In this document: positions 25,823 to 61,535 of the stretch, in pieces | Layout of the letters: each line of letters begins with the position of its first letter | How positions within the stretch are numbered: the stretch's first letter is position 1 | Source: Minisyncoccota bacterium | Lineage (GTDB): Bacteria; Patescibacteriota; Minisyncoccia; Phycocordibacterales; Phycocordibacteraceae | Length of the DNA: 64,000 nucleotides | Assembly (NCBI GenBank): GCA_035547315.1 | Contig: DASZVH010000004.1 | Coordinates: 12,107 to 76,106 of the forward strand | Direction: 5' to 3' | Translations under genes and position numbers: made by a program | Notes under the pieces: model-generated | Told to the model about the DNA's origin: nothing | The model's database searches: none | Seen by the model: only the letters and a program-made list of their open reading frames with translations

Positions 25823-26401
25823 ATGGGGACGTCGCCTAACCAGGTCAACGTCGAGTATTTCTTCCGCCTCGTCTACGAGTGCTTTACCGGCGCGTGCACC
25901 GTCGGCGGTACCGCGGGGCTCTTGGCCTTTTTCGCGCACCTCTGGCTCTGGATCACGATCCTCGGCTACTTGGCCGCGTTCGTCGGCCTCGGCTTCGTGA
26001 TCTATTGCAGCATGCGGATCTTCCAGCTCCGGCGCGCCGAGGAGGAGAAGTACGCCCCCTTCAACCTCGCGCCCGAGGACGAGCTCGCCAACCCGCGCTT
26101 CGCGCGCATCCAGGAGCTCCTTGCCGGCCCGAGCCAGAGCCAGTGGCGCGAGGCGATCCTCGAGGCGGACATCATGCTCTCCGATGCGCTCTCGCGCAAG
26201 GGCTTCGGCGGCGCCTCGATCGCCGACCAGCTGCAGCAGCTCGACGGGCGCGACTTCGCCTCGTTGAATGACGCCTGGGAGGCGCACCGGGTCCGCAACG
26301 CCATCGCGCACCAGGGCTCCGCCTTCGACCTCTCGCACACGCTCGCCAAGCGCACGCTCGACCGCTACGAACGCGCCCTCGAAGAGTTCGGCGCGCTCTA
26401 A
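25823..26401 (+). CDS. membrane-anchored protein with a C-terminal HEPN-like RNxxAH motif
   Basis: Two N-terminal TM helices. The C-terminus ...WEAHRVRNAIAHQG fits the HEPN Rx4-6H signature (DUF4145-like). A TAAGAT hexamer lies 6 nt upstream. Confidence 0.4.
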   Translation: MGTSPNQVNVEYFFRLVYECFTGACTVGGTAGLLAFFAHLWLWITILGYLAAFVGLGFVIYCSMRIFQLRRAEEEKYAPFNLAPEDELANPRFARIQELLAGPSQSQWREAILEADIMLSDALSRKGFGGASIADQLQQLDGRDFASLNDAWEAHRVRNAIAHQGSAFDLSHTLAKRTLDRYERALEEFGAL

Positions 26402-49846: not shown

Positions 49847-49920
49847 TGCCGGGTCGTCTAATGGTAGGACAACAGACTCTGGATCTGTTTATCTTGGTTC
49901 GAGTCCAAGCCCGGCAGCCA
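49847..49920 (+). tRNA. tRNA-Gln (CTG) with encoded CCA
   Basis: Acceptor TGCCGGG/CCCGGCA, anticodon loop CTCTGGA, T-loop TTCGAGT. Preceded by a 9 bp perfect palindrome (GCGCCACGC/GCGTGGCGC). Confidence 0.85.
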
Positions 49921-49994
49921 ATCAGGACATCGTACGGATGACCTAGAGGGGTCAATTCCTTTACTAAACCTTCTGGACATGTTTGCATTTAGCT

Positions 49995-51047
49995 ATGAAG
50001 GAGAAATCTCTGCCTAAACCGAATACGCAGGCCCTAAGTTGGTTTTATGGTGAGAGCAAGAAAGGGAATCTTATACTTGATCCCAAGTACCAAAGGAATC
50101 CGATTTGGTCCATTGGCCAGAAGTGTTTTCTGATAGATAGCTTGATTTCCGGGTCGCCCATTCCACAGGTCTTTATTAACATTAAAACAAAGACTGTTAG
50201 TAAAGTCCGACAAACCGACTATGAAGTAGTTGATGGACAACAACGGCTGCGCGCGATTTTGGAGTTCATGGAAGATCAGTACCCTTTAATCAAAACAACT
50301 GCCAAGTCCTACCCCGTTTCCGGCATCTATGCGCCACACATTGGCAAAAAATATTCCGAGTTACCCTCCGAATTACAGGATGCGATTTGGAACTATCCTC
50401 TTGCTGTTCAAGAGTTACGAGATTGGACGGATGTCGAAATAAGAGCCCTTTTTAGACGGCTCAATTATGTTGTAGAAAAATTGAACAAACAGGAATTACG
50501 CCACTCTCAGTACTTTGGTGAATTTGTTATTGCGGCAGAAGAGTTAAGCAAGGATCCTTTTTGGGATGAAATTGATTTCTTTTCCCGCCATGATTCGCAA
50601 CGAATGAAAGACGTGGAATTTGTTAGCGAGCTGCTCGTCCTTCTCATGGATGGCCCCCAAGAAGGGCAGTCTACTCTGGATAGATTTTATGCTGATTACG
50701 ATGTTCTTTTTCCGAAGAAAAAGAATTATCTGTCAAAATTTCATCAAACCCTCCGCTCCTTAAAATCAATAGAGACGTACCTGGCCAGCAGTCGCTTTGT
50801 AAAGAAAGCGGACTTTTACGCTCTATTTGGGGCTGTGTCGAGTTTAAATGAGCTTGTCAAACAAGCAGTCAACCTTTCTTACGCTGAGAACGAGCTAAGC
50901 AAATTTGAAAATCAACTTTCAAAATCTCCCGAAAGTCTGACGGGAAAAGTATTGAAATATTACAATACTGTCATCGAAGGTCCTGCAAAGAAAGCTAAAC
51001 GGGAAGAGCGCATCAAAATACTTTCAGGCTTGGTAGCTAAAGATTGA
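49995..51047 (+). CDS. DUF262 (ParB-like nuclease domain, DGQQR motif) protein
   Basis: YQRNPIWS...VVDGQQRLRAI signature of the DUF262/GmrSD N-terminal domain. ATG at 49995 (the track starts at TTG 49983). Confidence 0.75.
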   Translation: MKEKSLPKPNTQALSWFYGESKKGNLILDPKYQRNPIWSIGQKCFLIDSLISGSPIPQVFINIKTKTVSKVRQTDYEVVDGQQRLRAILEFMEDQYPLIKTTAKSYPVSGIYAPHIGKKYSELPSELQDAIWNYPLAVQELRDWTDVEIRALFRRLNYVVEKLNKQELRHSQYFGEFVIAAEELSKDPFWDEIDFFSRHDSQRMKDVEFVSELLVLLMDGPQEGQSTLDRFYADYDVLFPKKKNYLSKFHQTLRSLKSIETYLASSRFVKKADFYALFGAVSSLNELVKQAVNLSYAENELSKFENQLSKSPESLTGKVLKYYNTVIEGPAKKAKREERIKILSGLVAKD

Positions 51048-51742
51048 AATGGATGGCAACTACTACGGCAAAAAAAGTTGTCAACAAATTTACCAGCCGG
51101 CTCACTAAGGTTGGAGGATACTACGGCGAGCTGATATTAGCCGTTAACTTAAAGAGGCATCAGGCAGCTTTAGAGACTATGTTGGCTGAACAGTTCGTAT
51201 TCAATATTGTGGTGTTTTGGGAGGTGTTTCTTAACGAACTTCTGCTCACTTATCTTGTTGCGTCTCCAAAAAGGTTTCTTTCCAATCTCAAAGACAGGAT
51301 GGGCCAGTCTGTAAAAGAGCGATATGGAGGCGGGGCTGCCCAAATGCTCAAATTTAATTCTCCTAGATCAATCTCACTGGCAAAGGCCGCTGCACTTGCT
51401 GACCCAAAAGATTTTAATCTAACCGCAGAGTCTGCTGATCAGCTTACGAAACGAGCCAATGACTTGCTCGAAGCGAAATTCGCTAAACCCTTTACCCTAG
51501 ATCCCGATGATGCTCAATTTTTGGATTATTTGGTTTGTCTTAGAAATTTTCTTGCACACAGAAGTACATCTTCTAGAAATAAATTGAGAATAGCAGTGTC
51601 TGCACTCCAAAATTCGAACAACGATCTGAACGGCTCCATTTCAAACATAGGAACTTATCTGAAGACCACTAACACGTCAAACAAGACCCGAGCCTTGATA
51701 ATTTCAGAGCGTATGGTCCAAATAGCAAATAAGCTGGTTTAA
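51044..51742 (+). CDS. HEPN-like protein (RNxxAH motif)
   Basis: LVCLRNFLAHRS fits the Rx4-6H HEPN motif. ATGA overlap with the DUF262 gene. Confidence 0.45.
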   Translation: MKWMATTTAKKVVNKFTSRLTKVGGYYGELILAVNLKRHQAALETMLAEQFVFNIVVFWEVFLNELLLTYLVASPKRFLSNLKDRMGQSVKERYGGGAAQMLKFNSPRSISLAKAAALADPKDFNLTAESADQLTKRANDLLEAKFAKPFTLDPDDAQFLDYLVCLRNFLAHRSTSSRNKLRIAVSALQNSNNDLNGSISNIGTYLKTTNTSNKTRALIISERMVQIANKLV

Positions 51743-53079
51743 GAGTCCAGTATGACTTTTTTGTTTATGAGTGTAAGCCGGCTTCTAAATGACTGCATTA
51801 ACTCTCGCTTCTCCTCCAGTGAACCCTCCTTAAGAAGGTACTTCGCATAAGATCGTAAATCTGTTTTGCTCTGAGCATCGATTTGGTCTGCGCCGATGCC
51901 GAGCACTTTATTGCGGAAGTGATTGAAGCGCCCCATTTCTTTCTCAAGCTTCTGTTTAATGCCGAGAGTATTGAGATCCAACTTATCCACGATCTCTAAA
52001 AGCTGAGCAATCAACTCTTCTTCCCGTAGGTATGTGTTCTTGCAATTCTTGTCATAGAACCTCGTGCAGCCGTAGTAGATATACTTTGCTGTAGTCCCAT
52101 CCGCCAGACCCTTGAACTTCTCTTCAGCTGTTACACCGGAATTGCACAATCCGCATTTCATCAAGCGTGTGAAGGCGAATTCTTTGTACATCTGGCCATG
52201 TGGTTTGTGCGAGTCCAATTTTTCCTGAACCTTCTTGTAAAGTTCTTGGCTGATCAAAGGCTCGTGCCGGCCCACGTACCACTTGCCACTTTTCTTTGGG
52301 TACTCAATGAGACCACAGTAGAACGGGTTACGTAAGACCGTATGGATATTGCTCAACGAGAAGGGCTTCCCATTTCGAGTTTGAAACTTCACCTCGTCCT
52401 TTAACCACCGAAAGAGGCGTCTGCCACTCCACTTTTCGTAGGCAACCTTTTCGAACATCAATCGGATAATGTGAGCCCGCTGCGGATCGAGAACAACGTG
52501 GCATTTCATTGTTCGATCCGGATGGTTGATATAGCCAGTGGGCGCTACGCTCGGCCATAGGCCCATTTCGATGCGGGTGCGGAGACCGCGCTTCACGTTC
52601 ATGCTCTTGTTGTCGTTCTCGAGCTTCGCTTGCGAGCACAGGATCATCAGCAAGAATTTCTCACTGGGATTGTTTGTAAATTTCTGGCCGTATGTCCTCA
52701 CCTCAACTAGTTTTTTCTGGTCCATCAAGTCAACGATCGAGCCAAGATCGCCGGCGTTTCTTGAAAGGCGATCCGGATGCCATGCGAGTATGGCGTTGAA
52801 CTTGCCCTCCTTCAGTTCACGGATAAGCTCATTAAAAACTGGTCGTTGGGCAGTGTCCTTGGCCGAGTGAGATTCGCGCTTTATTTCGCTCACAGTCAAC
52901 CCGTCTCTCTGGGCGAGAGTCAGCATCTCTTTTATTTGGGAGTCTATCGAGAGTGCCTGCTTTTCGTCGGATTCGGTCGATTTTCGTGCATACAGGCAGT
53001 ATTTAAGGGGAACGACCTCTACAGGCGCTTGGGCGCCCGTTTGGCCTGCGTATAGTCCCACTTCCGGCATACAGCACAC
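51739..53079 (-). CDS. large serine recombinase (resolvase N-domain + recombinase domain + Zn ribbon)
   Basis: YARKSTESDEKQALSIDSQ catalytic region, DRLSRN motif and a C-terminal CGLCNSG...YYGC...C zinc ribbon. Exact start uncertain. Confidence 0.85.
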   Translation of the reverse strand: MCCMPEVGLYAGQTGAQAPVEVVPLKYCLYARKSTESDEKQALSIDSQIKEMLTLAQRDGLTVSEIKRESHSAKDTAQRPVFNELIRELKEGKFNAILAWHPDRLSRNAGDLGSIVDLMDQKKLVEVRTYGQKFTNNPSEKFLLMILCSQAKLENDNKSMNVKRGLRTRIEMGLWPSVAPTGYINHPDRTMKCHVVLDPQRAHIIRLMFEKVAYEKWSGRRLFRWLKDEVKFQTRNGKPFSLSNIHTVLRNPFYCGLIEYPKKSGKWYVGRHEPLISQELYKKVQEKLDSHKPHGQMYKEFAFTRLMKCGLCNSGVTAEEKFKGLADGTTAKYIYYGCTRFYDKNCKNTYLREEELIAQLLEIVDKLDLNTLGIKQKLEKEMGRFNHFRNKVLGIGADQIDAQSKTDLRSYAKYLLKEGSLEEKRELMQSFRSRLTLINKKVILDS

Positions 53080-53185
53080 ATACAGCCCGGAAGCCGTTCA
53101 GAAGTCTAGTGCCCTGAAAGGGGATAACTACACCCCACTTATCTCGCAATAGCCATAGAGACCGATTTGCGATAGTCTTGGATTA

Positions 53186-54049
53186 ATGCCTAAGAAGAAA
53201 AGGACTAGGAGACTGCGTGGAAGTGATTTCTTGATGAGATGGTCTCAGGGAGCATGGAGCGAGGACCAACTCGTGGATGCAGTAAACGCGACCCAAAAGT
53301 TTTTTGCGTTGCCGTATGGTCCTAGCGGTACAGCGCCAGACGATGATCCGGTGGCCTATGAGAAATACTTTGAAAGATTAGACGCAGCCGGTCTTGGTTC
53401 GATCAAGCGACCAGACCTCCTTATTTTCCCGGAGTCGGCTCGCAGCAAGGTTAATAGTATGGTTGAGCCTCTTGGTGGTGTCGCGGAACTGCCTTTTCAC
53501 ACGGAAGATGAGGAGCACATAAAAGCACTCCTTTCTTTGGCAATCATGGCAGTCGAATGCGAGAACAGCTTATGGAAGGCGAAACAGATGCCGAACTACA
53601 CCTACACCCTCAAGCCACAGAAGAGGCTTGGAGGTAAGCCCGGTTTAGCTAAAAATGCAGTGCTTCCTACGATCATCATGAAAGACGAGGATAGAGGCCC
53701 GCTCACAGAATGGCAAAAACGAAATCCGAAACTCCCGCTCCATATTTGGCATGCGTTTTTTGACGAAGCATACGGCATTTCGTTTGCCGATATGAATCGG
53801 CTTATTGACGATGGGACCATCGAGCCTTCTGTTCAAGAGTTTTCAAACGCAGGACAGCCCTCGACAAAGAAAACTCTATACAAAGCGCATTATTACCTTG
53901 GCTATCCGCTCGCGACCTCAACGCAGGACCCGGCGCTAAAAGCTCAAACTATAGTGGATAAGAATGGCCACATTTACCCTTACGTTACCTTCTCTGGAGG
54001 CAAGATGGCTCTCCGGGATGATGCTGTGAGGGTTTTGGAGAGTCTGTAG
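53186..54049 (+). CDS. hypothetical protein, candidate restriction endonuclease
   Basis: 287 aa with no family match. Lies 20 nt upstream of, and co-oriented with, the methyltransferase. Contains PD...E.K-like residues (RPDLLIFPE...ECENSLWKAK). Confidence 0.3.
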   Translation: MPKKKRTRRLRGSDFLMRWSQGAWSEDQLVDAVNATQKFFALPYGPSGTAPDDDPVAYEKYFERLDAAGLGSIKRPDLLIFPESARSKVNSMVEPLGGVAELPFHTEDEEHIKALLSLAIMAVECENSLWKAKQMPNYTYTLKPQKRLGGKPGLAKNAVLPTIIMKDEDRGPLTEWQKRNPKLPLHIWHAFFDEAYGISFADMNRLIDDGTIEPSVQEFSNAGQPSTKKTLYKAHYYLGYPLATSTQDPALKAQTIVDKNGHIYPYVTFSGGKMALRDDAVRVLESL

Positions 54050-54069
54050 GAGGAAGGTAAAATAAAGGG

Positions 54070-55566
54070 GTGAAAACCCGAGAACAATTAAGAGAGAAGG
54101 GACAATTCTGGACGCCGAACTGGATAGCTCAGAGCATGGTTAGTTATGCTTTGGGGAATGGCTCGAATCAACTTTTTGATCCCGCTCATGGGCTTGGTGC
54201 GTTTTTTGTCGCAGCAAAGGAACTGAGCAAGAAGTTTAAAAGAAGAATAACCTTCTTTGGTACTGACATAGACTCTGATCTAGTGTCTGAAATTAAAGAA
54301 CAAGGGATTCTTGAAGCCAAGGATTTAAAGAATCTACGAGTTGCTGACTTTGTAGATATTGCTTCCCAAAAGAAATACAAGTCCATAGTCGTAAATCCTC
54401 CATATATCCGCCATCACCGCATTCCTCTTGAAAAGAAACTGGCTCTGAAGAGAATCGCTCTACAACATCTTGGTCGTGAATTAGATGGCAGAGCAGGCCT
54501 CCATGTGTACTTTTTAATACTAAGTCTACTTGCACTTGAAAAAGACGGAAGGTTATCTTTCATTGTTTCCTCTGATATATGCGAAGGGGTATTTGCGAAT
54601 CCACTTTGGCAGTGGATCGGAAAGAACTATCAAATAGAAGCAGTTCTGACTTTCAGTGGTAAAGCTAGTCCATTTCCGGGTGTAGATACAAACCCAATTA
54701 TTTTCTTCATTAGAAACGCAAAACCAAAAGCAGTTCTTTCGTGGGCTCGAGCGAATGGAATAAATCCCGAGTCTATCAATAAATGGGTTGATTCTGGTTT
54801 TAAAACATCTCTAGCGGATGGATCAGATTTATTAGTGTTTGAACGTTCACTGAATGAGGCGCTTACCACGGGCCTTTCTCGACTTCCACAGACCGAAGAA
54901 CACAAATTCACTCTAGGAGATTTTGTGTATGCGATGCGAGGCATTGCTACTGGGAATAATGAATTCTTTTTGCTGGATCAAGAGACCGTTGATAGATTCG
55001 GAATTCCTCAAACGTATTTAGTTCCAGCAATTGCTCGAACACGAGATGTCGCAGGAGATATGGTTGATGAGTCTACTTTTACAGCTATTGTCGAAAAAGG
55101 AAGACCACATTACCTACTTTATATTGATGCTGACAGCCTAGATGGCCTTCCAAAACCGATAAGAAATTATATTGCCCACGGAGAAGAACTTGGAGTACAC
55201 AAGACCGCACTAATCTCTGCCCGAAGGGTCTGGTTCAAAATGGAAAAAAGAAATCCACCGCCGATCCTTTTTGCCTACTTAGGAAGGAGAAGTTCAAGAT
55301 TTATCGTCAACAAAGCCGGAGCGCTGCCTCTCAATGGTTTTCTCTGCATCTATCCTAAGGACACTGAAGCATCATACTTAAATAAACTAATACAGATAAT
55401 TAATCGCGAAGAGGTATTAAAGAACCTGTTCCTGGTCGGCAAATCATACGGATCCGATGCAGTAAAAGTAGAGCCTCGTGCGATAGAGCGATTGCCCATT
55501 CCGGAGAAGCTTCTCAAGGAAGTAGGACTTATACCCCCTAGGAAGGGTCAGCTAGCTTTAGTTTGA
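54070..55566 (+). CDS. N6-adenine DNA methyltransferase (gamma-class, Eco57I/TaqI-like) with C-terminal target-recognition domain
   Basis: GQFWTP N-terminus, motif I FDPAHGLGAFF and motif IV VVNPPY. 498 aa. Confidence 0.8.
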   Translation: MKTREQLREKGQFWTPNWIAQSMVSYALGNGSNQLFDPAHGLGAFFVAAKELSKKFKRRITFFGTDIDSDLVSEIKEQGILEAKDLKNLRVADFVDIASQKKYKSIVVNPPYIRHHRIPLEKKLALKRIALQHLGRELDGRAGLHVYFLILSLLALEKDGRLSFIVSSDICEGVFANPLWQWIGKNYQIEAVLTFSGKASPFPGVDTNPIIFFIRNAKPKAVLSWARANGINPESINKWVDSGFKTSLADGSDLLVFERSLNEALTTGLSRLPQTEEHKFTLGDFVYAMRGIATGNNEFFLLDQETVDRFGIPQTYLVPAIARTRDVAGDMVDESTFTAIVEKGRPHYLLYIDADSLDGLPKPIRNYIAHGEELGVHKTALISARRVWFKMEKRNPPPILFAYLGRRSSRFIVNKAGALPLNGFLCIYPKDTEASYLNKLIQIINREEVLKNLFLVGKSYGSDAVKVEPRAIERLPIPEKLLKEVGLIPPRKGQLALV

Positions 55567-55567
55567 T

Positions 55568-55822
55568 TTAGAGAAAATAGCCAACGCTTTTACTGTAGAG
55601 CTTTGCGAGTTTATTGAGCCAGATGGCCTCTACTCGCAATTCTCCAAGTTCGATTTTTGAAACCCAGGACTGGGAGCACCCGAGCTTTTCAGCCACCTCT
55701 GCCTGTGTCAGCCCGGCTTCTATCCGAGCTTTCTTTAGCCGCTTCACAAACCCAGCTCGTTCATCGGTATGAATAGATTTCTTCATACCTATAAGGCTGT
55801 ATTCCGTTATGGGATATTCCAA
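55568..55822 (-). CDS. XRE-family helix-turn-helix transcriptional regulator
   Basis: LTQAEVAEKLGCSQSWVSKIELGE Cro/C1-type HTH. Could be the controller of the adjacent restriction-modification genes or the island repressor. Confidence 0.7.
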   Translation of the reverse strand: MEYPITEYSLIGMKKSIHTDERAGFVKRLKKARIEAGLTQAEVAEKLGCSQSWVSKIELGELRVEAIWLNKLAKLYSKSVGYFL

Positions 55823-55937: not shown

Positions 55938-56228
55938 ATGGCTCGTAAACCAAAGCCTCAGTGCCCAAATTGTAAGCAGTACAGGTTGGACGAAAAGCGT
56001 GGTATCTGGCTGCTACTCGCATCAGGGTGCTTTTTCGGTCCGCTCATGGTCGCCAGTGTCTTGTTTATTACAATCATCGGTATCCCGATTGCCTTGTTCT
56101 TTCTGGGTCTCTACATCATCACGATCCCACTCGGCATTATTGCTATAATCGTGGCGTTTCGTACTCACGGCTACCGGTGTAGAAATTGCCACTGGGTTGG
56201 CGATAACCCAATCATTGAATCGGCATGA
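55938..56228 (+). CDS. small membrane protein with split zinc ribbon (CPNC ... CRNC)
   Basis: 96 aa with two TM helices flanked by CxxC pairs. Confidence 0.4.
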   Translation: MARKPKPQCPNCKQYRLDEKRGIWLLLASGCFFGPLMVASVLFITIIGIPIALFFLGLYIITIPLGIIAIIVAFRTHGYRCRNCHWVGDNPIIESA

Positions 56229-56340
56229 GGCATGGCAATTCTGTCGTCACAAAGCGCTCGTGAGCTTCAAAGAATAATCAAAGAGGCTACGGAGCGCGAT
56301 GTGTCGCTCGGAGAAGCCTATGCGATTTGGGGATACCTAA

Positions 56341-57060
56341 TCAAACTCCTGCAGTTGTTGTGGAAGGTAGAACACCGCGATGAGGTACCCATACCGCCAC
56401 AACAGATGTCATTGTTTGGTCGGTTCGGAAACGCAAGTGCGGATCACAGGAGTCGTAAAAGATATTCTCGGAGTTAGGGATAGAGAATGCTTCTTTGGTT
56501 TTGCCTTCTCGATCCCATCGTTCTTTAAATTCAAGCAAGGTCTCTTCTGGGTCCGTGGGATGTTCGAGTTCGTGCATTTCTTTCAGCTCCCTATTTTCAT
56601 TCTTGACTTTAGCAAGCAGGTCAACGATATCTCTGAGGTGGAAAAGGCCCTCGGTTTGTTCCGGTTCAGGAAGATTGAGTACCAGAAAACGGATATCGTT
56701 CGGGTGAAGAAGGAGCCGAGGTTTCTCAACCTCCTGTTCTTTTGGAAAATTATGAAAATACTGCAGCCACAACTTCTGGCTTGCCGAATTACCTTGCACC
56801 GCACTACGCAAAATACTTTCAATTACGAAGCTGGTCTTTTCGAAAGCCCACTCTTTTCGTAAGGCTGTCACGCGAGACTGGAAGTCGGAGCGTTTTTTCC
56901 AGGCAGTTGGCGTGTTAATGCTGATTCCGTAGTATTCAGAAAATTGCTGCTGGGTTTCAATCCCGAGCCGGTGACGCTCGGAAGGGGGCATGGAGGTCCA
57001 GAGGATAAACTCCTCATAGACGCCATCTTTTTTCACACCTCGATTTTCACGGTTGTTCAT
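56341..57060 (-). CDS. hypothetical phage-like protein (N-terminal HTH, terminase-small-subunit-like)
   Basis: ETQQQFSEYYGISINTPTAWKKR resembles terS/Nu1-type HTH segments. 239 aa, low GC. Confidence 0.3.
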   Translation of the reverse strand: MNNRENRGVKKDGVYEEFILWTSMPPSERHRLGIETQQQFSEYYGISINTPTAWKKRSDFQSRVTALRKEWAFEKTSFVIESILRSAVQGNSASQKLWLQYFHNFPKEQEVEKPRLLLHPNDIRFLVLNLPEPEQTEGLFHLRDIVDLLAKVKNENRELKEMHELEHPTDPEETLLEFKERWDREGKTKEAFSIPNSENIFYDSCDPHLRFRTDQTMTSVVAVWVPHRGVLPSTTTAGV

Positions 57061-57169
57061 GGTTGTGATCTGCTTAATCCCTTGAGAATCGCTTGGGATT
57101 AAGCGGTATCTTCAATATTACTCCCGGAAATACCTGTTGTGAGGCCCTCTCTCTGTGGACCAACGAAAA

Positions 57170-57360
57170 CCCGACCTAGACGGGTCGAGATCTTGGTCGG
57201 ATAGGCGGTAGAATAGCCTTACGACACCTCACATTACTTCGCACCGAACCAAAGTAGCCAGCAGTCTAGAAAAGTATCGAAGGACCTATACGGGTCAATA
57301 AATAAGCCATCGCGAAAATTAGTTCGAGATTTCTAGACCCATACCCGTCTAGGAAATCGA
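57170..57360. repeat. iteron-like repeats: three copies of GACCTA(G/T)ACGGGTC (one inverted) plus three TCTAGA palindromes
   Basis: Approximate positions 57172-57189, 57283-57296 and 57336-57353. Lies in the 350 nt non-coding region of the island. Coordinates +/-2 nt. Confidence 0.5.
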
Positions 57361-57378
57361 ACTTCTAGAAAATGTGTA

Positions 57379-57409
57379 AAGGGCCGACCCGGTTGGATCG
57401 GCCCTTTGC
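57379..57409 (-). terminator. rho-independent terminator after the 57413-57760 gene
   Basis: AAGGGCCGAcccggttggaTCGGCCCTTT. On the minus strand a T-rich tract (tttacacatttt) follows. Confidence 0.6.
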
Positions 57410-57412
57410 GCG

Positions 57413-57760
57413 TCATGCGCTCGCCATCGCTTTCGGCACCATCGCGCCCAGCTCATCGGGACTCATGCCGAGTTCCTCGGCGAGCTTGAGCGCGTTGACG
57501 AGCATCTTGGTAGTCGCGATACGAAGGTTCTCTTCGTTCATCGCGCCGCCGTGATCCTGCGCCTCCGTCTCTGTCGCGATCTTGCCAGCCGACTTGCTGA
57601 TGTGCTTCAGGCTGTGCGAGACGGCGAAGGCACGAACCTTCTCCGGAGTGCTCAGATCGACGTTCGGATAGTGCTGATTCGTGAAGGTGTACCTCGCGCC
57701 GATGAAGGCCATCAGGGAAGCGAGATTCGGTTCAGGCGTTCCGGTCATAATGACCTCCAT
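57413..57760 (-). CDS. hypothetical protein (possibly MazG-like NTP pyrophosphohydrolase fold)
   Basis: 115 aa all-helical with an acidic ETEAQDHGG segment. Weak similarity only. Confidence 0.25.
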   Translation of the reverse strand: MEVIMTGTPEPNLASLMAFIGARYTFTNQHYPNVDLSTPEKVRAFAVSHSLKHISKSAGKIATETEAQDHGGAMNEENLRIATTKMLVNALKLAEELGMSPDELGAMVPKAMASA

Positions 57761-58174
57761 GGTTGAGGGTGAACTTTAGCCTGACACATTCATACCTCAA
57801 TTTGCCCGACCTGTCTAAGGCTAGAACTCTTCCACATAGAGAATCCTGATATTCTAAGCCCTGTTCGGGGTTATTCTGCTCGCGCTTGCGGCCGGCATAG
57901 GCTTTCTCTGGGGTGACAAGCATGCACTCGATAAACTCACTATCGTTGAGATAACGCCCGATCAAATGGTACAAGCCATGAGTGCTGATAACTTCTATGG
58001 TTTCTGGCGCGAGAGTACTTTAGTCGCGTCGGGGACCGTGGCCGGCATCTCCCAACAAAATGGCGAAACGCTTATCCAACTCACAACCGAGCCCGGAAAG
58101 TCGCTTTAGATGAGTAGCTGAACAAGTGAAAGCGCGGGGTCCTTCGCCGCGTATAATAAATACTAGCGGCCTTC

Positions 58175-58726
58175 ATGAAAAAAGCTCTCCTTTCTTTTGG
58201 ACTCATTCTCGTATCAGGGGCATACGCCCTCTATCATGCAATGGGTGGCGCGGCAACAAATCCCGCTGTCACAGTACCCCCCGTGACATCTTCGCAGGTT
58301 CAGCCCATAACTATTACCAATACTTCTTCGCCAGCCGCCCCTCCACCACAAAACGCTACAGAAACGCCGATTCAAACGACCCAGACGGCTACACCTCCGC
58401 CGTCGGCCCCCACTCCGCAACCGCTCTCGGTACCCAAAGGTCAATATGCTGATGGTACGTACACCGGCAGCCCCGCCGACGCGTACTACGGCACCGTCGA
58501 AGTGCAAGCCGTTGTCTCGGGCGGCAAGCTTGCCGATGTTACTTTCCTTCAATACCCGAGCGACCGGAGCACGAGCCGCTATATCAATAGCCAAGCGATG
58601 CCACTCCTTATGCAGGAAGCCATTGCCGCGCAAAGCGCGAACGTGAGCGGCGTCTCGGGCGCGAGTGATACGAGCGCAGCGTTCCGCGAATCGCTCGCGA
58701 GTGCACTCGCACAGGCAAAAAACTAA
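58175..58726 (+). CDS. secreted FMN-binding domain protein (flavinylation substrate)
   Basis: Signal peptide, a Pro/Thr-rich linker and a C-terminal FMN_bind-like domain. It has VSGVSGASDTS, resembling the [S/T]GA[S/T] flavinylation motif. Confidence 0.6.
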   Translation: MKKALLSFGLILVSGAYALYHAMGGAATNPAVTVPPVTSSQVQPITITNTSSPAAPPPQNATETPIQTTQTATPPPSAPTPQPLSVPKGQYADGTYTGSPADAYYGTVEVQAVVSGGKLADVTFLQYPSDRSTSRYINSQAMPLLMQEAIAAQSANVSGVSGASDTSAAFRESLASALAQAKN

Positions 58727-58727
58727 C

Positions 58728-59468
58728 ATGCGTATCGAACGAATTATCATGGGCATGCCAGCGGCGATCGAACTCGTTGGTGCCGATTCTCGAGAACCGC
58801 ACGACCGCATCTTCGCGTTATGGGACGCGATCGATGTACGATTTAGCACCTACAAGCCCGAGAGCGAGACGAGCCGCATCAACCGCGGCGAGATTAACGA
58901 ACGCGATTATAGTCCCGAGATGCAGGAGATTATTGCTCTTACCGAAAAGACAAAGCGGGAGACGAATGGATACTTCGATGCGCGCCCCCATGACGGTTCG
59001 TTCGATCCCTCTGGCGTTGTGAAAGGATGGGCGCTTCGCGAGGCAGCGCACCGCGCAGAGGAACTTGGCTTTGATTCCTTCTATGTCGAAATCGGCGGCG
59101 ACATTCAAACTCGCGGCAAGGATGCGGCAGGACGAGATTGGACAATTGGCATTCGCAACCCATTCAACTATGATGAGATCGTTAAGGTGCTCTGTCCGCG
59201 CGGCGCGGGCATCGCCACCTCGGGAAACGCTGCGCGTGGCGCGCATATCTACAATCCGCACGATTCGAAAGTCGCACCCGCAGAACTGGCAAGCATAACC
59301 GTCCTCGGTCCAGACATCTTCGAGGCCGATCGTTTCGCAACCGCGGCGTTCGCAATGGGTGAGAAGGGCATCTATTTTATTGAAAGCATGGACAGTTTCG
59401 AGGCGTACGCAATTGCCCCAAGTGGTGTTGCCACGATGACTTCCGGGCTCTTCCGTTATCTTGCATGA
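58728..59468 (+). CDS. apbE: FAD:protein FMN transferase ApbE
   Basis: ApbE-family signature along its length (GAIEL..., GGD, DSFEAYA...). 246 aa. Confidence 0.8.
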   Translation: MRIERIIMGMPAAIELVGADSREPHDRIFALWDAIDVRFSTYKPESETSRINRGEINERDYSPEMQEIIALTEKTKRETNGYFDARPHDGSFDPSGVVKGWALREAAHRAEELGFDSFYVEIGGDIQTRGKDAAGRDWTIGIRNPFNYDEIVKVLCPRGAGIATSGNAARGAHIYNPHDSKVAPAELASITVLGPDIFEADRFATAAFAMGEKGIYFIESMDSFEAYAIAPSGVATMTSGLFRYLA

Positions 59469-60949
59469 TTCGTTTCGTCGACGACATCTTGAATAAGATC
59501 ACGATGTACCGCTTGGTGCTCTACTACCTTGCGGCGCTCGCACTCCTCGCGTTCATACTTGGACTCTTCGGAATTGTCCCTGTCGATCCCACTGCGCTCG
59601 CGTTTTCAATACTCCTCGTGACGATCGTGTGTTTGGCGACGAACTGGGTCTTTGCGCGCGTTTTTTCTGCGGAAACCAACATCGAATCGGCATACATAAC
59701 AGCCCTCATCCTTGTTCTCATTGTGCCGCCGGCCACCGCGGGCAATGTGGCGGGTGTCGGCCTTCTCGTCTTCGTCTCGGTCTGGGCGATGGCATCCAAA
59801 TACATTTTTGCGATCGGCAAAAAGCACGTCTTCAATCCTGCAGCGATCGCGATCGCGATCGCTGCGCTCGCGCTCAACCAGCCCGCGACCTGGTGGGTGG
59901 GCGGCAATCTTTGGCTCGCGCCCGTCGTTATCCTCGGTGGCCTGCTTGTCGTGCGCAAGATTCAGCGCTTTGATCTCGTCCTCTCCTTTATGGCGGTCGC
60001 GATTGTTGCAACCCTTGCAACCGCCCCTTCCGCCGACTATGGGGGCCTGCTCTCGCAGACACTTCTGCATTCCTCATTCTTTTTCCTCGCGTTCGTGATG
60101 CTAACCGAGCCACTTACTACGCCGCCCAATCGCTTGCTCCGCATGGCATACGGCACATTAGTTGGGCTACTTTTTGCACCAAATATCCACCTCGGCTCCT
60201 TCTACCTTACGCCTGAGCTCGCGCTCCTCGCTGGCAACATTTTCTCCTACGCCGTGAGCCCGAAGGGCCGCTACACACTCACGTTGGTTCGGGTTGAGCA
60301 AGCCGCGCGCGATGCGTACGATTTCGTGTTTACCCCTGATCGTGCTTTTACCTTCAAGCCCGGTCAATACATGGAATGGACGCTTAGTCATAAATATCCG
60401 GACGACCGCGGTAATCGGCGGTATTTCACGCTCGCCTCCTCGCCGACTGCTTCTGAAGTCCGTCTCGGCGTGAAGTTCTACAACCCCTCGAGCACGTTTA
60501 AGCGTGCCCTTGCCGCACTCACCGAAAGCAAAACAATCTCTGTGTCGCACCTCGCGGGCGGTTTCGTGCTCCCGCGTAAGAAAGAGACCAAGCTTGTTTT
60601 CATCGCGGGTGGGATCGGCATAACGCCCTTTCGCAGCATGATCGAATACCTCCTCGACTCACGCGAACGGCGGGACATCGTGCTTCTCTATTCGAACAAA
60701 GCCGAAGCCGATATAGCCTACAAACCGCTTCTCGATCGCGCACGGGCAGAACTTGGTATCCGAACCGTTTATGTGACCGGTACACCAATCGACGCAGCAC
60801 TCATTGCCTGCGAAATACCCGACTACCGCAATCGCTCGTTCTATATCTCGGGACCGCATGGGATGGTGGAGACATTCAAGGCCGCGCTGCGTCGTATGGG
60901 CGTGTCGTGGTTTAGAATAAAGAGTGATTTCTTCCCGGGCTTCGCCTAA
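59465..60949 (+). CDS. membrane oxidoreductase: NqrB/RnfD-like polytopic N-domain fused to an FNR-like FAD/NAD(P)-binding domain
   Basis: KHVFNPAAIA (NqrB/RnfD HxFNPA motif). The C-terminal domain has RRYFTLASSP (RxYS FAD site) and LVFIAGGIGITPFRSM (NAD site). ATGA overlap with apbE. Confidence 0.6.
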   Translation: MIRFVDDILNKITMYRLVLYYLAALALLAFILGLFGIVPVDPTALAFSILLVTIVCLATNWVFARVFSAETNIESAYITALILVLIVPPATAGNVAGVGLLVFVSVWAMASKYIFAIGKKHVFNPAAIAIAIAALALNQPATWWVGGNLWLAPVVILGGLLVVRKIQRFDLVLSFMAVAIVATLATAPSADYGGLLSQTLLHSSFFFLAFVMLTEPLTTPPNRLLRMAYGTLVGLLFAPNIHLGSFYLTPELALLAGNIFSYAVSPKGRYTLTLVRVEQAARDAYDFVFTPDRAFTFKPGQYMEWTLSHKYPDDRGNRRYFTLASSPTASEVRLGVKFYNPSSTFKRALAALTESKTISVSHLAGGFVLPRKKETKLVFIAGGIGITPFRSMIEYLLDSRERRDIVLLYSNKAEADIAYKPLLDRARAELGIRTVYVTGTPIDAALIACEIPDYRNRSFYISGPHGMVETFKAALRRMGVSWFRIKSDFFPGFA

Positions 60950-60953
60950 TGCT

Positions 60954-61535
60954 ATGAGCACCTACGAAAAAGTCGCAACTGCCATCATTGTCATCCTCGT
61001 CGCTATCGGCGTTGCCTTCTCCTATCACGAAATTACCGAGCCGCATGAAAATAACGGCGGCCCAGACTTTGACCACAGCATCGGCCAGAATTTCGAAATC
61101 GGACCCTTCGACACCATCTTGAGCCGTCGATCCTCGGGCGGTATCGAACAGAATTGCGCGCCATTGCAGTCAGTGATCCTCGGAGCACTGCATGATGTAA
61201 AAGAAAAGCTCGAGGCCGCAGGCACGTATCAGCGAAGCGCGGATGTTTTCGAGGTCAATCAAGACACGTTGCAATTCTTCTGCAATGCGCAAGCAGAGGT
61301 GACACTCATTGATGACACTGGAACGAAACTCGTGCTTGATAAGCCGCCCTTTACGCGCGGCATTCCAGCGGGCGGTACAGCTACGGACGTAGGCACTGAG
61401 GTGCGTATCGACGCGACAATTGTGCGTCCCGGGACCGTACCACCAACCATGCCGACAGTTTCCGTTGAAGAACTCATTCCAGATCGGTATCTCGAAGGGG
61501 CAGTATCGTCGAGTACCGAAGTGATTGGGGAGTGA
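60954..61535 (+). CDS. hypothetical membrane-anchored protein
   Basis: One N-terminal TM helix and a ~170 aa extracytoplasmic domain. No motif recognised. Confidence 0.35.
   Translation: MSTYEKVATAIIVILVAIGVAFSYHEITEPHENNGGPDFDHSIGQNFEIGPFDTILSRRSSGGIEQNCAPLQSVILGALHDVKEKLEAAGTYQRSADVFEVNQDTLQFFCNAQAEVTLIDDTGTKLVLDKPPFTRGIPAGGTATDVGTEVRIDATIVRPGTVPPTMPTVSVEELIPDRYLEGAVSSSTEVIGE

Follow-up and report, generated by a model that had tools for sequence, protein, structure and literature searches.

The first two genes of a low-GC (guanine plus cytosine) stretch in a Paceibacterota genome probably form a two-gene anti-phage cassette resembling the PD-T4-2 system of Escherichia coli, carried as cargo by a serine-recombinase island beside a tRNA-Gln gene. 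The genes lie in a 64,000-nucleotide stretch of contig DASZVH010000004.1 (hereafter the window), from a metagenome-assembled genome (MAG) of the Candidate Phyla Radiation (CPR)/Patescibacteria. The upstream open reading frame, ORF1, encodes a DUF262 protein and the downstream one, ORF2, a protein of the HEPN type. We infer a defence function for the pair by analogy with characterised systems. A prediction made earlier from the letters of the window (the original prediction) had proposed a candidate defence module at this position; both the HEPN fold and the co-conservation of the genes came through our checks, which supports that reading at the level of sequence comparison.

Profile evidence places ORF2 among the HEPN proteins of the RiboL-PSP type, with an invariant Rx4H dyad; the link to the family is transitive and not direct. 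A word-indexed search with ORF2 returned 15 relatives, and an exhaustive profile search returned 434 representative clusters (50% identity) at E≤1e-3 and 295 at E≤1e-10; the complete sequences among the matches listed are nearly all 220–250 residues long. We aligned 119 full-length members, some of them only 20–25% identical to ORF2, and found R164 and H169 to be the sole invariant columns. N165 is conserved in 91% and S171 in 99% of the members, and E57, D117, N122 and R213 also reach at least 90%. By our estimate about 0.3 Rx4H motifs are expected by chance in a protein of 229 residues, and the motif by itself is not significant; it is significant here because R164 and H169 are invariant across 119 divergent relatives.

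When the same 119 members were scanned against Pfam (E≤1), 47 matched PF18735 HEPN_RiboL-PSP (best 1.8e-8), 31 HEPN_Apea, 24 HEPN_Swt1 and 7 HEPN_MAE_28990, with smaller numbers matching DUF4145, pEK499_p136 and Abi_2. The gathering score of PF18735, 28.4 bits, is exceeded by the relatives P0281 (34.6 bits) and P0283 (34.9 bits), in both cases over residues 12–172, and by a homologue on a Pacificitalea plasmid that NCBI names 'HEPN domain-containing protein' (29.2 bits). ORF2 itself fails this threshold and has no PF18735 match at E≤1. The profile of its 15 closest homologues, aligned with hhalign to the PF18735-matching proteins, gave a probability of 99.86% (E 5.7e-31) over 223 columns, with RNxxAH in register. 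The same profile found no match among PDB sequences, a search of PHROGs with ORF2 gave nothing useful, and tblastn of ORF2 against phage genomes gave no match.

The AlphaFold model of ORF2 (predicted local distance difference test, pLDDT, 87.6; predicted template modelling score, pTM, 0.83) is all-alpha, and the Rx4H motif lies at the C-terminal end of helix 151–169, before the loop to helix 172–183. By definition (PMC3710099), the Rx4-6H motif of a HEPN domain stands at a helix end, its Arg is followed by a polar residue, and helices 2 and 3 are separated by an insert. In ORF2 the Rx4H ends a long helix, in keeping with this definition, and the polar residue is Asn. Acidic residues occur in the long helix 38–70 that precedes the motif, E57 being conserved in 98% and E46 in 80% of the family. 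The original prediction had taken LRNFLAH for a HEPN signature, and the invariance of the dyad, the hhalign result and the helix-end position bear this out; profile comparison and structure prediction agree on the HEPN fold. We infer an RNase activity for ORF2.

ORF1 is, as judged from its motifs and profile matches, a ParB/DUF262 NTPase with three intact motifs and without a nuclease domain of its own. Pfam GmrSD_N/DUF262 matches residues 20–174 (E 1.5e-19); there is no further Pfam domain at E≤0.1 and no DUF1524/HNH, so that both the assignment to DUF262 with its DGQQR and the lack of a DUF1524/HNH fusion stand as originally predicted. The QRxxxW, DGQQR and FxxxN motifs, as defined previously (PMC12065111), show no variation among 56 homologues, and conservation stays at or above 97% among 120. 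At the equivalent motif of HEC-06, the substitutions Q79A and R80A abolish defence (bioRxiv 10.1101/2024.01.29.577857). Among the PADLOC models NsnA scores best (5.9e-36, residues 20–343 on positions 59–375 of 385), and PD-T4-2_A matches with a lower score (1.1e-23, model positions 48–344 of 363); the match in PHROGs is phrog_2598 (2.7e-41).

The AlphaFold model of ORF1 (pLDDT 84.9) has an alpha/beta N-terminal domain and an all-helical C-terminal half, and this helical region resembles the DNA-binding ParBDB region of Menshen NsnA. Foldseek placed BrxU (7p9k, E 4.5e-4) first among solved structures, followed by ParB CTPases. The family comprises 633 matches at E≤1e-10, the best 120 of which are 61–74% identical to ORF1. 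Its source labels come from at least eight phyla, CPR among them, and name Patescibacteria, Verrucomicrobia, Elusimicrobiota, Nitrospiria, Acidobacteriota, Chloroflexi and a gammaproteobacterial symbiont, among others. We regard ORF1 as the predicted sensor or regulator of the pair.

The same properties could be read as those of a DNA-targeting system related to type IV restriction, in which DUF262 recognises modified DNA and is, or recruits, the nuclease, while ORF2 is a subunit for specificity or regulation, without catalytic activity. The enzymes GmrSD, BrxU and SspE, all with DUF262 as their N-domain, act on modified DNA; BrxU heads the structural matches of ORF1, and a weak PADLOC match to REase_II (8.8e-12) points the same way. 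Neither protein, however, contains HNH/DUF1524 or another DNase domain, and characterised relatives use DUF262 as an NTPase or sensor and not as a nuclease (PMC12065111; PMC10952713). Moreover, the HEPN catalytic Arg and His, and no other residues, are invariant in ORF2, an argument for an active RNase; we consider a DNA-targeting function quite unlikely.

At every locus the two genes adjoin with a few nucleotides between them, and they are co-mobile between phyla. The original prediction coupled them through an ATGA overlap, and this has to be corrected: the TGA of ORF1 occupies 51045–51047 and the ATG of ORF2 begins at 51053, leaving a 5-nt spacer. Starting ORF2 at the Met of this ATG agrees with 14 aligned homologues and with the 229-residue NCBI gene model, and the sole possible overlapping start is a TTG at 51044 (TTGA). 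Spacers at the other loci measure 4–16 nt, with no overlaps.

In all nine independent loci (9/9) a DUF262 gene lies directly upstream of the ORF2 homologue (226–233 residues), on the same strand and in the same order, and the co-conservation on which the original prediction depended is thereby borne out. The nine loci are the window, L001-3 (groundwater metagenome), L004-5, L006 (Micropepsaceae), L007 (Acidobacteriota), L008-9, L010-11, L012-13 (Patescibacteria) and L019-20 (Chloroflexi). Their flanking genes are unrelated between loci and they cover at least four named lineages; most are chromosomal, with no mobile-element genes alongside. The DUF262 proteins of these loci are 61–70% identical to ORF1 and their partners 37–54% identical to ORF2; the HEPN partner therefore evolves faster.

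At one of these loci (L007:4841-5964, Acidobacteriota MAG CAVUDA010000032.1) the ORF2 homologue is intact and the DUF262 gene preceding it shows several frameshifts and stops, being either a pseudogene or the product of assembly errors. If the frameshifts are real, an intact HEPN gene without its partner would oppose a strict toxin-antitoxin relation.

The constancy of the arrangement also bears on the idea that ORF1 is an orphan NsnA, the remnant of a degenerate Menshen system beside an unrelated gene, or that it has a ParB-like partition or maintenance function for a mobile element. NsnA is the best PADLOC match of ORF1 (5.9e-36) and ParB-fold CTPases are among its structural matches. Neither NsnB nor NsnC, however, is present in the window or at any of the nine loci, where the HEPN gene always lies downstream and the two-gene adjacency is conserved. 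For a partition function, there is no ParA partner and most loci are chromosomal without adjacent mobile-element genes. We regard either version as very improbable.

The reading that we prefer, a PD-T4-2-like defence cassette, suggests a mechanism in which ORF1 is the sensor and switch and ORF2 the effector. We propose it because the DUF262 proteins GmrSD, BrxU and SspE sense DNA and use nucleoside triphosphate (NTP) hydrolysis to switch a nuclease on, and because HEPN defence RNases cut tRNA or mRNA. The DUF262 protein would bind DNA and recognise a phage-specific feature, that is, modified or otherwise abnormal DNA. Binding and hydrolysis of NTP would then bring about a conformational change through which the HEPN protein, encoded by a gene of its own, is released or activated in place of a fused HNH nuclease. 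The HEPN protein, probably active as a dimer, would cleave RNA without a metal, most likely in tRNA anticodon loops or in mRNA. Translation would stop as a consequence and the infection would be aborted.

Several observations weigh against assigning the pair to PD-T4-2-like defence. ORF2 itself has no match in Pfam (E≤1), PADLOC (E≤1) or NCBIfam, its model has no Foldseek match in the PDB below E=1, and its helix-2 acidic residue lies outside the typical Ex3[KR] context. The PD-T4-2_B model of PADLOC is matched by none of the 119 relatives (0/119), nor by ORF2; PADLOC would therefore not call the window locus PD-T4-2. On the side of ORF1, the PD-T4-2_A model is matched but NsnA scores higher, and residue 331 (50985–50987), within the C-terminal EGP-N-K..KR motif, is an Ala where at least 90% of the family have Asn. 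Finally, the PD-T4-2 literature cited here describes no mechanism for that system.

The pair sits in a mobile, horizontally acquired low-GC island that also carries a recombinase and restriction-modification (R-M) genes. The coordinates of these features are collected in Table 1. GC content is mostly 60–68% in the window and 42–50% from about 49,921 to about 57,000, and it falls from 65% to 42% directly 3' of tRNA-Gln(CTG), the probable integration site of the island. The large serine recombinase, which is convergent with ORF2 and overlaps it at the 3' end, is the probable island integrase. The placement of the pair in a mobile island beside R-M genes, as originally proposed, is upheld by the low GC content, the tRNA-Gln, the serine recombinase and the AccI-like and Eco57I-like genes. 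Neither direct repeats of the tRNA 3' end of the att type nor promoters and terminators around the pair were detected above chance. An Rfam scan of the island found the tRNA only and no known RNA antitoxin.

Table 1. Coordinates, in window numbering, of the DUF262–HEPN pair, its motifs and the neighbouring island features.
Feature	Position	Strand	Evidence or remark
tRNA-Gln(CTG), left island boundary	49847..49920	+	ARAGORN; Rfam 62 bits
ORF1, 350-residue DUF262 (ParB-like NTPase) protein with C-terminal helical NsnA-C/ParBDB-like region	49995..51047	+	
DUF262 motif I, QRNPIW (QRxxxW)	50091..50108	+	Q33, R34 and W38 conserved
DUF262 motif II, DGQQR (within VVDGQQRL), nucleotide-binding/hydrolysis centre	50232..50246	+	D80–R84 conserved
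DUF262 motif III, FRRLN (FxxxN)	50451..50465	+	F153–N157 conserved
Intergenic spacer, 5 nt	51048..51052	+	Sequence; homologue N-termini
ORF2, 229-residue all-alpha RiboL-PSP-type HEPN protein, predicted RNase effector	51053..51742	+	
HEPN catalytic motif R164-N-F-L-A-H169 (within CLRNFLAHR; Rx4H, polar Asn after Arg)	51542..51559	+	
Large serine recombinase	51739..53079	-	Pfam Resolvase 2.1e-22, Recombinase 6.8e-18, Zn_ribbon_recom 1.1e-6
AccI-like restriction endonuclease	53186..54049	+	Pfam RE_AccI 1.1e-14; PADLOC REase_II
Eco57I-like N6-adenine methyltransferase	54070..55566	+	Pfam M_Eco57I_C, Eco57I, N6_Mtase; PADLOC MTase_II 4.1e-52
Small helix-turn-helix protein	55568..55822	-	

The island setting is the ground on which a toxin-antitoxin (TA) or addiction module has to be considered, with the HEPN protein as toxin, the DUF262 protein as its neutraliser and stabilisation of the island, not phage sensing, as the main role. 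HEPN-MNT is one of the TA systems in which a HEPN protein is the toxin (PMC3710099), and the pair lies at the end of a mobile island beside the recombinase and travels as a compact cassette. The partner, however, is a 350-residue NTPase with strictly conserved catalytic motifs and not a small labile antitoxin or MNT, and the nearest tested system, PD-T4-2, is a phage defence (PMC9519451). The frameshifted DUF262 gene beside an intact HEPN gene at L007 would be lethal under a strict TA relation, unless it reflects sequencing errors. We think such a main role unlikely; TA and abortive-infection roles are mutually compatible.

The type II R-M genes of the window (53186–55566) are separate cargo and lie outside the pair, because most loci have no R-M genes beside it; at L001, L008, L010 and L019 the pair occurs without flanking R-M genes. 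Downstream of the R-M genes, several small open reading frames without family matches occupy 55938–57760, and after these, within the region 55938–61535, FMN_bind, ApbE and NQR/Rnf-like genes follow at a GC content of 55–56%.

A related CPR genome (L012:4838-9955, Patescibacteria MAG JAWVHH010000475.1; CTP synthase 73% identical) can be compared with positions 49847–55566 of the window. There, too, the tRNA-Gln(CTG) immediately precedes the DUF262–HEPN pair, which lies in an island of 42–49% GC with a homologous serine recombinase 56% identical to that of the window, although the gene as called lacks the N-terminal ~118 residues. The R-M genes of that island differ from those of the window and consist of an HNH protein and a C5-methyltransferase. 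The comparison suggests that islands targeting tRNA-Gln form a family in which the pair and the recombinase are the conserved core and the R-M cargo can be exchanged.

A second RNxxAH protein elsewhere in the window, which the original prediction had described as membrane-anchored, fared less well. The open reading frame at 25823–26401 (+) encodes 192 residues between a gatA-like gene and a tRNA-Met, and the motif (VRNAIAHQ) and a hydrophobic N-terminus are present. Its HEPN nature is unsupported: the protein has no Pfam match, and hhalign against the ORF2 family aligned 11 columns, the motif only, at a probability of 0.85%.

DUF262 and HEPN-like genes also occur in other combinations. In the prophage Escherichia phage vB_EcoM-689R6 (L021:2450-4161; ON470584.1, 35567–37278), a gene for a 350-residue DUF262 protein (PADLOC NsnA 8.5e-32, PD-T4-2_A 9.5e-14) sits between the prophage integrase and host icd. 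The protein encoded 8 nt downstream has 216 residues and an ARNACAH motif at the equivalent position; it has no Pfam or PADLOC match, and the motif alone aligns with the ORF2 family. This may be another unrecognised DUF262 and HEPN-like pair. On the Asticcacaulis plasmid pASTEX02 (L022:2480-4622) the gene for a 432-residue DUF262 protein is followed by an overlapping protein kinase gene. On the Cupriavidus plasmid pENH92 (L015:3935-6057) the gene for a HEPN relative (29% identity to ORF2) overlaps the one after it, which encodes a hypothetical protein of 472 residues; next to them are an AAA ATPase and a helicase, perhaps a Gabija-like pair. The distant PF18735-positive relatives P0283 and Pacificitalea pDY25-G have no adjacent DUF262 gene. 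It seems that sensor and effector modules alike have been recombined with other partners.

The pair in the window extends a validated DUF262–HEPN architecture to a large divergent clade, and to CPR/Patescibacteria, with a HEPN partner, ORF2, that matched no PADLOC, Pfam or NCBIfam model. It is suited to the study of a ParB-like NTPase switch that controls a HEPN RNase in trans, and its catalytic dyad and three NTPase motifs, all of them invariant, offer sites for mutation. An NsnA-like DUF262 sensor can couple to different effectors, whether NsnB/C, a HEPN protein or a kinase. More tentatively, and with less than even confidence, we raise the possibility that the clade is a distinct, widespread defence family missed by current detection tools, in which an NsnA-type sensor (DUF262 plus ParBDB) directly controls an extended RiboL-PSP-type HEPN RNase without NsnB. 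If so, it would be evidence that the Menshen and PD-T4-2 lineages have swapped effectors, and also a first example of this type of defence on a serine-recombinase island that targets tRNA-Gln in Patescibacteria. Nothing established is overturned, the association having been predicted in 2013 and validated in 2022.

Among known systems, GmrSD, BrxU and SspE share the DUF262 NTPase domain and DGQQR with ORF1, and BrxU is its best structural match. In each of these enzymes the same polypeptide also carries an HNH DNase directed at modified DNA, whereas here the effector is separate and is a predicted RNase. A GmrSD-type enzyme was rejected as an identification, given that the 350-residue ORF1 has GmrSD_N only and no DUF1524/HNH. 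A HEPN-MNT toxin-antitoxin was rejected as well; no nucleotidyltransferase gene lies next to ORF2, which is paired with a DUF262 gene instead.

Menshen (NsnABC; Millman 2022; Li et al. 2025, PMC12065111) is closer. ORF1 shares the architecture of NsnA, a ParB-DUF262 domain followed by a helical C-terminal region, and the proposed logic is the same, with a DUF262 sensor controlling a separate toxic effector. Menshen has the NsnB ATPase and NsnC (an inactive PIN plus a nuclease), whereas the window pair has a single HEPN effector instead. An identification as Menshen was rejected, with no NsnB or NsnC in the window or at any of the nine loci and no match of ORF2 to the NsnB or NsnC model.

The RiboL-PSP-HEPN family (PF18735) has been described as having a conserved Rx4-6H and as occurring 'in operon with ParB' (Anantharaman et al. 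2013, PMC3710099). The ORF2 clade is homologous over its full length to proteins that pass the PF18735 model, whereas ORF2 lies below the detection limit of that model and has no endoRNase L-PSP fusion.

PD-T4-2, from E. coli ECOR65, was reported as 'DUF262, HEPN' with two coding sequences in 1540 bp (Vassallo et al. 2022, PMC9519451). Its deletion in ECOR65 restored plaquing of T4, and the cloned system protected K12 (PMC9519451). The HHpred matches of its B protein, HEPN_RiboL-PSP (97.8%) and HEPN_MAE_28990 (96.9%), end at residue 163 (PMC9519451). Our comparison draws on the PADLOC models and this published HHpred table. Like the pair in the window, PD-T4-2 consists of a DUF262 gene followed by a small HEPN gene, with RiboL-PSP as the nearest family and no DUF1524/HNH. 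The window pair is longer (1748 bp against 1540 bp), and its 229-residue ORF2 has an extra N-terminal helix and an insert of about 80 residues; the host of PD-T4-2 is a gammaproteobacterium, whereas that of the window is a CPR bacterium. The pair is a divergent relative of the validated PD-T4-2, with an architecture that was predicted in 2013 (PMC3710099) and validated in 2022 (PMC9519451).

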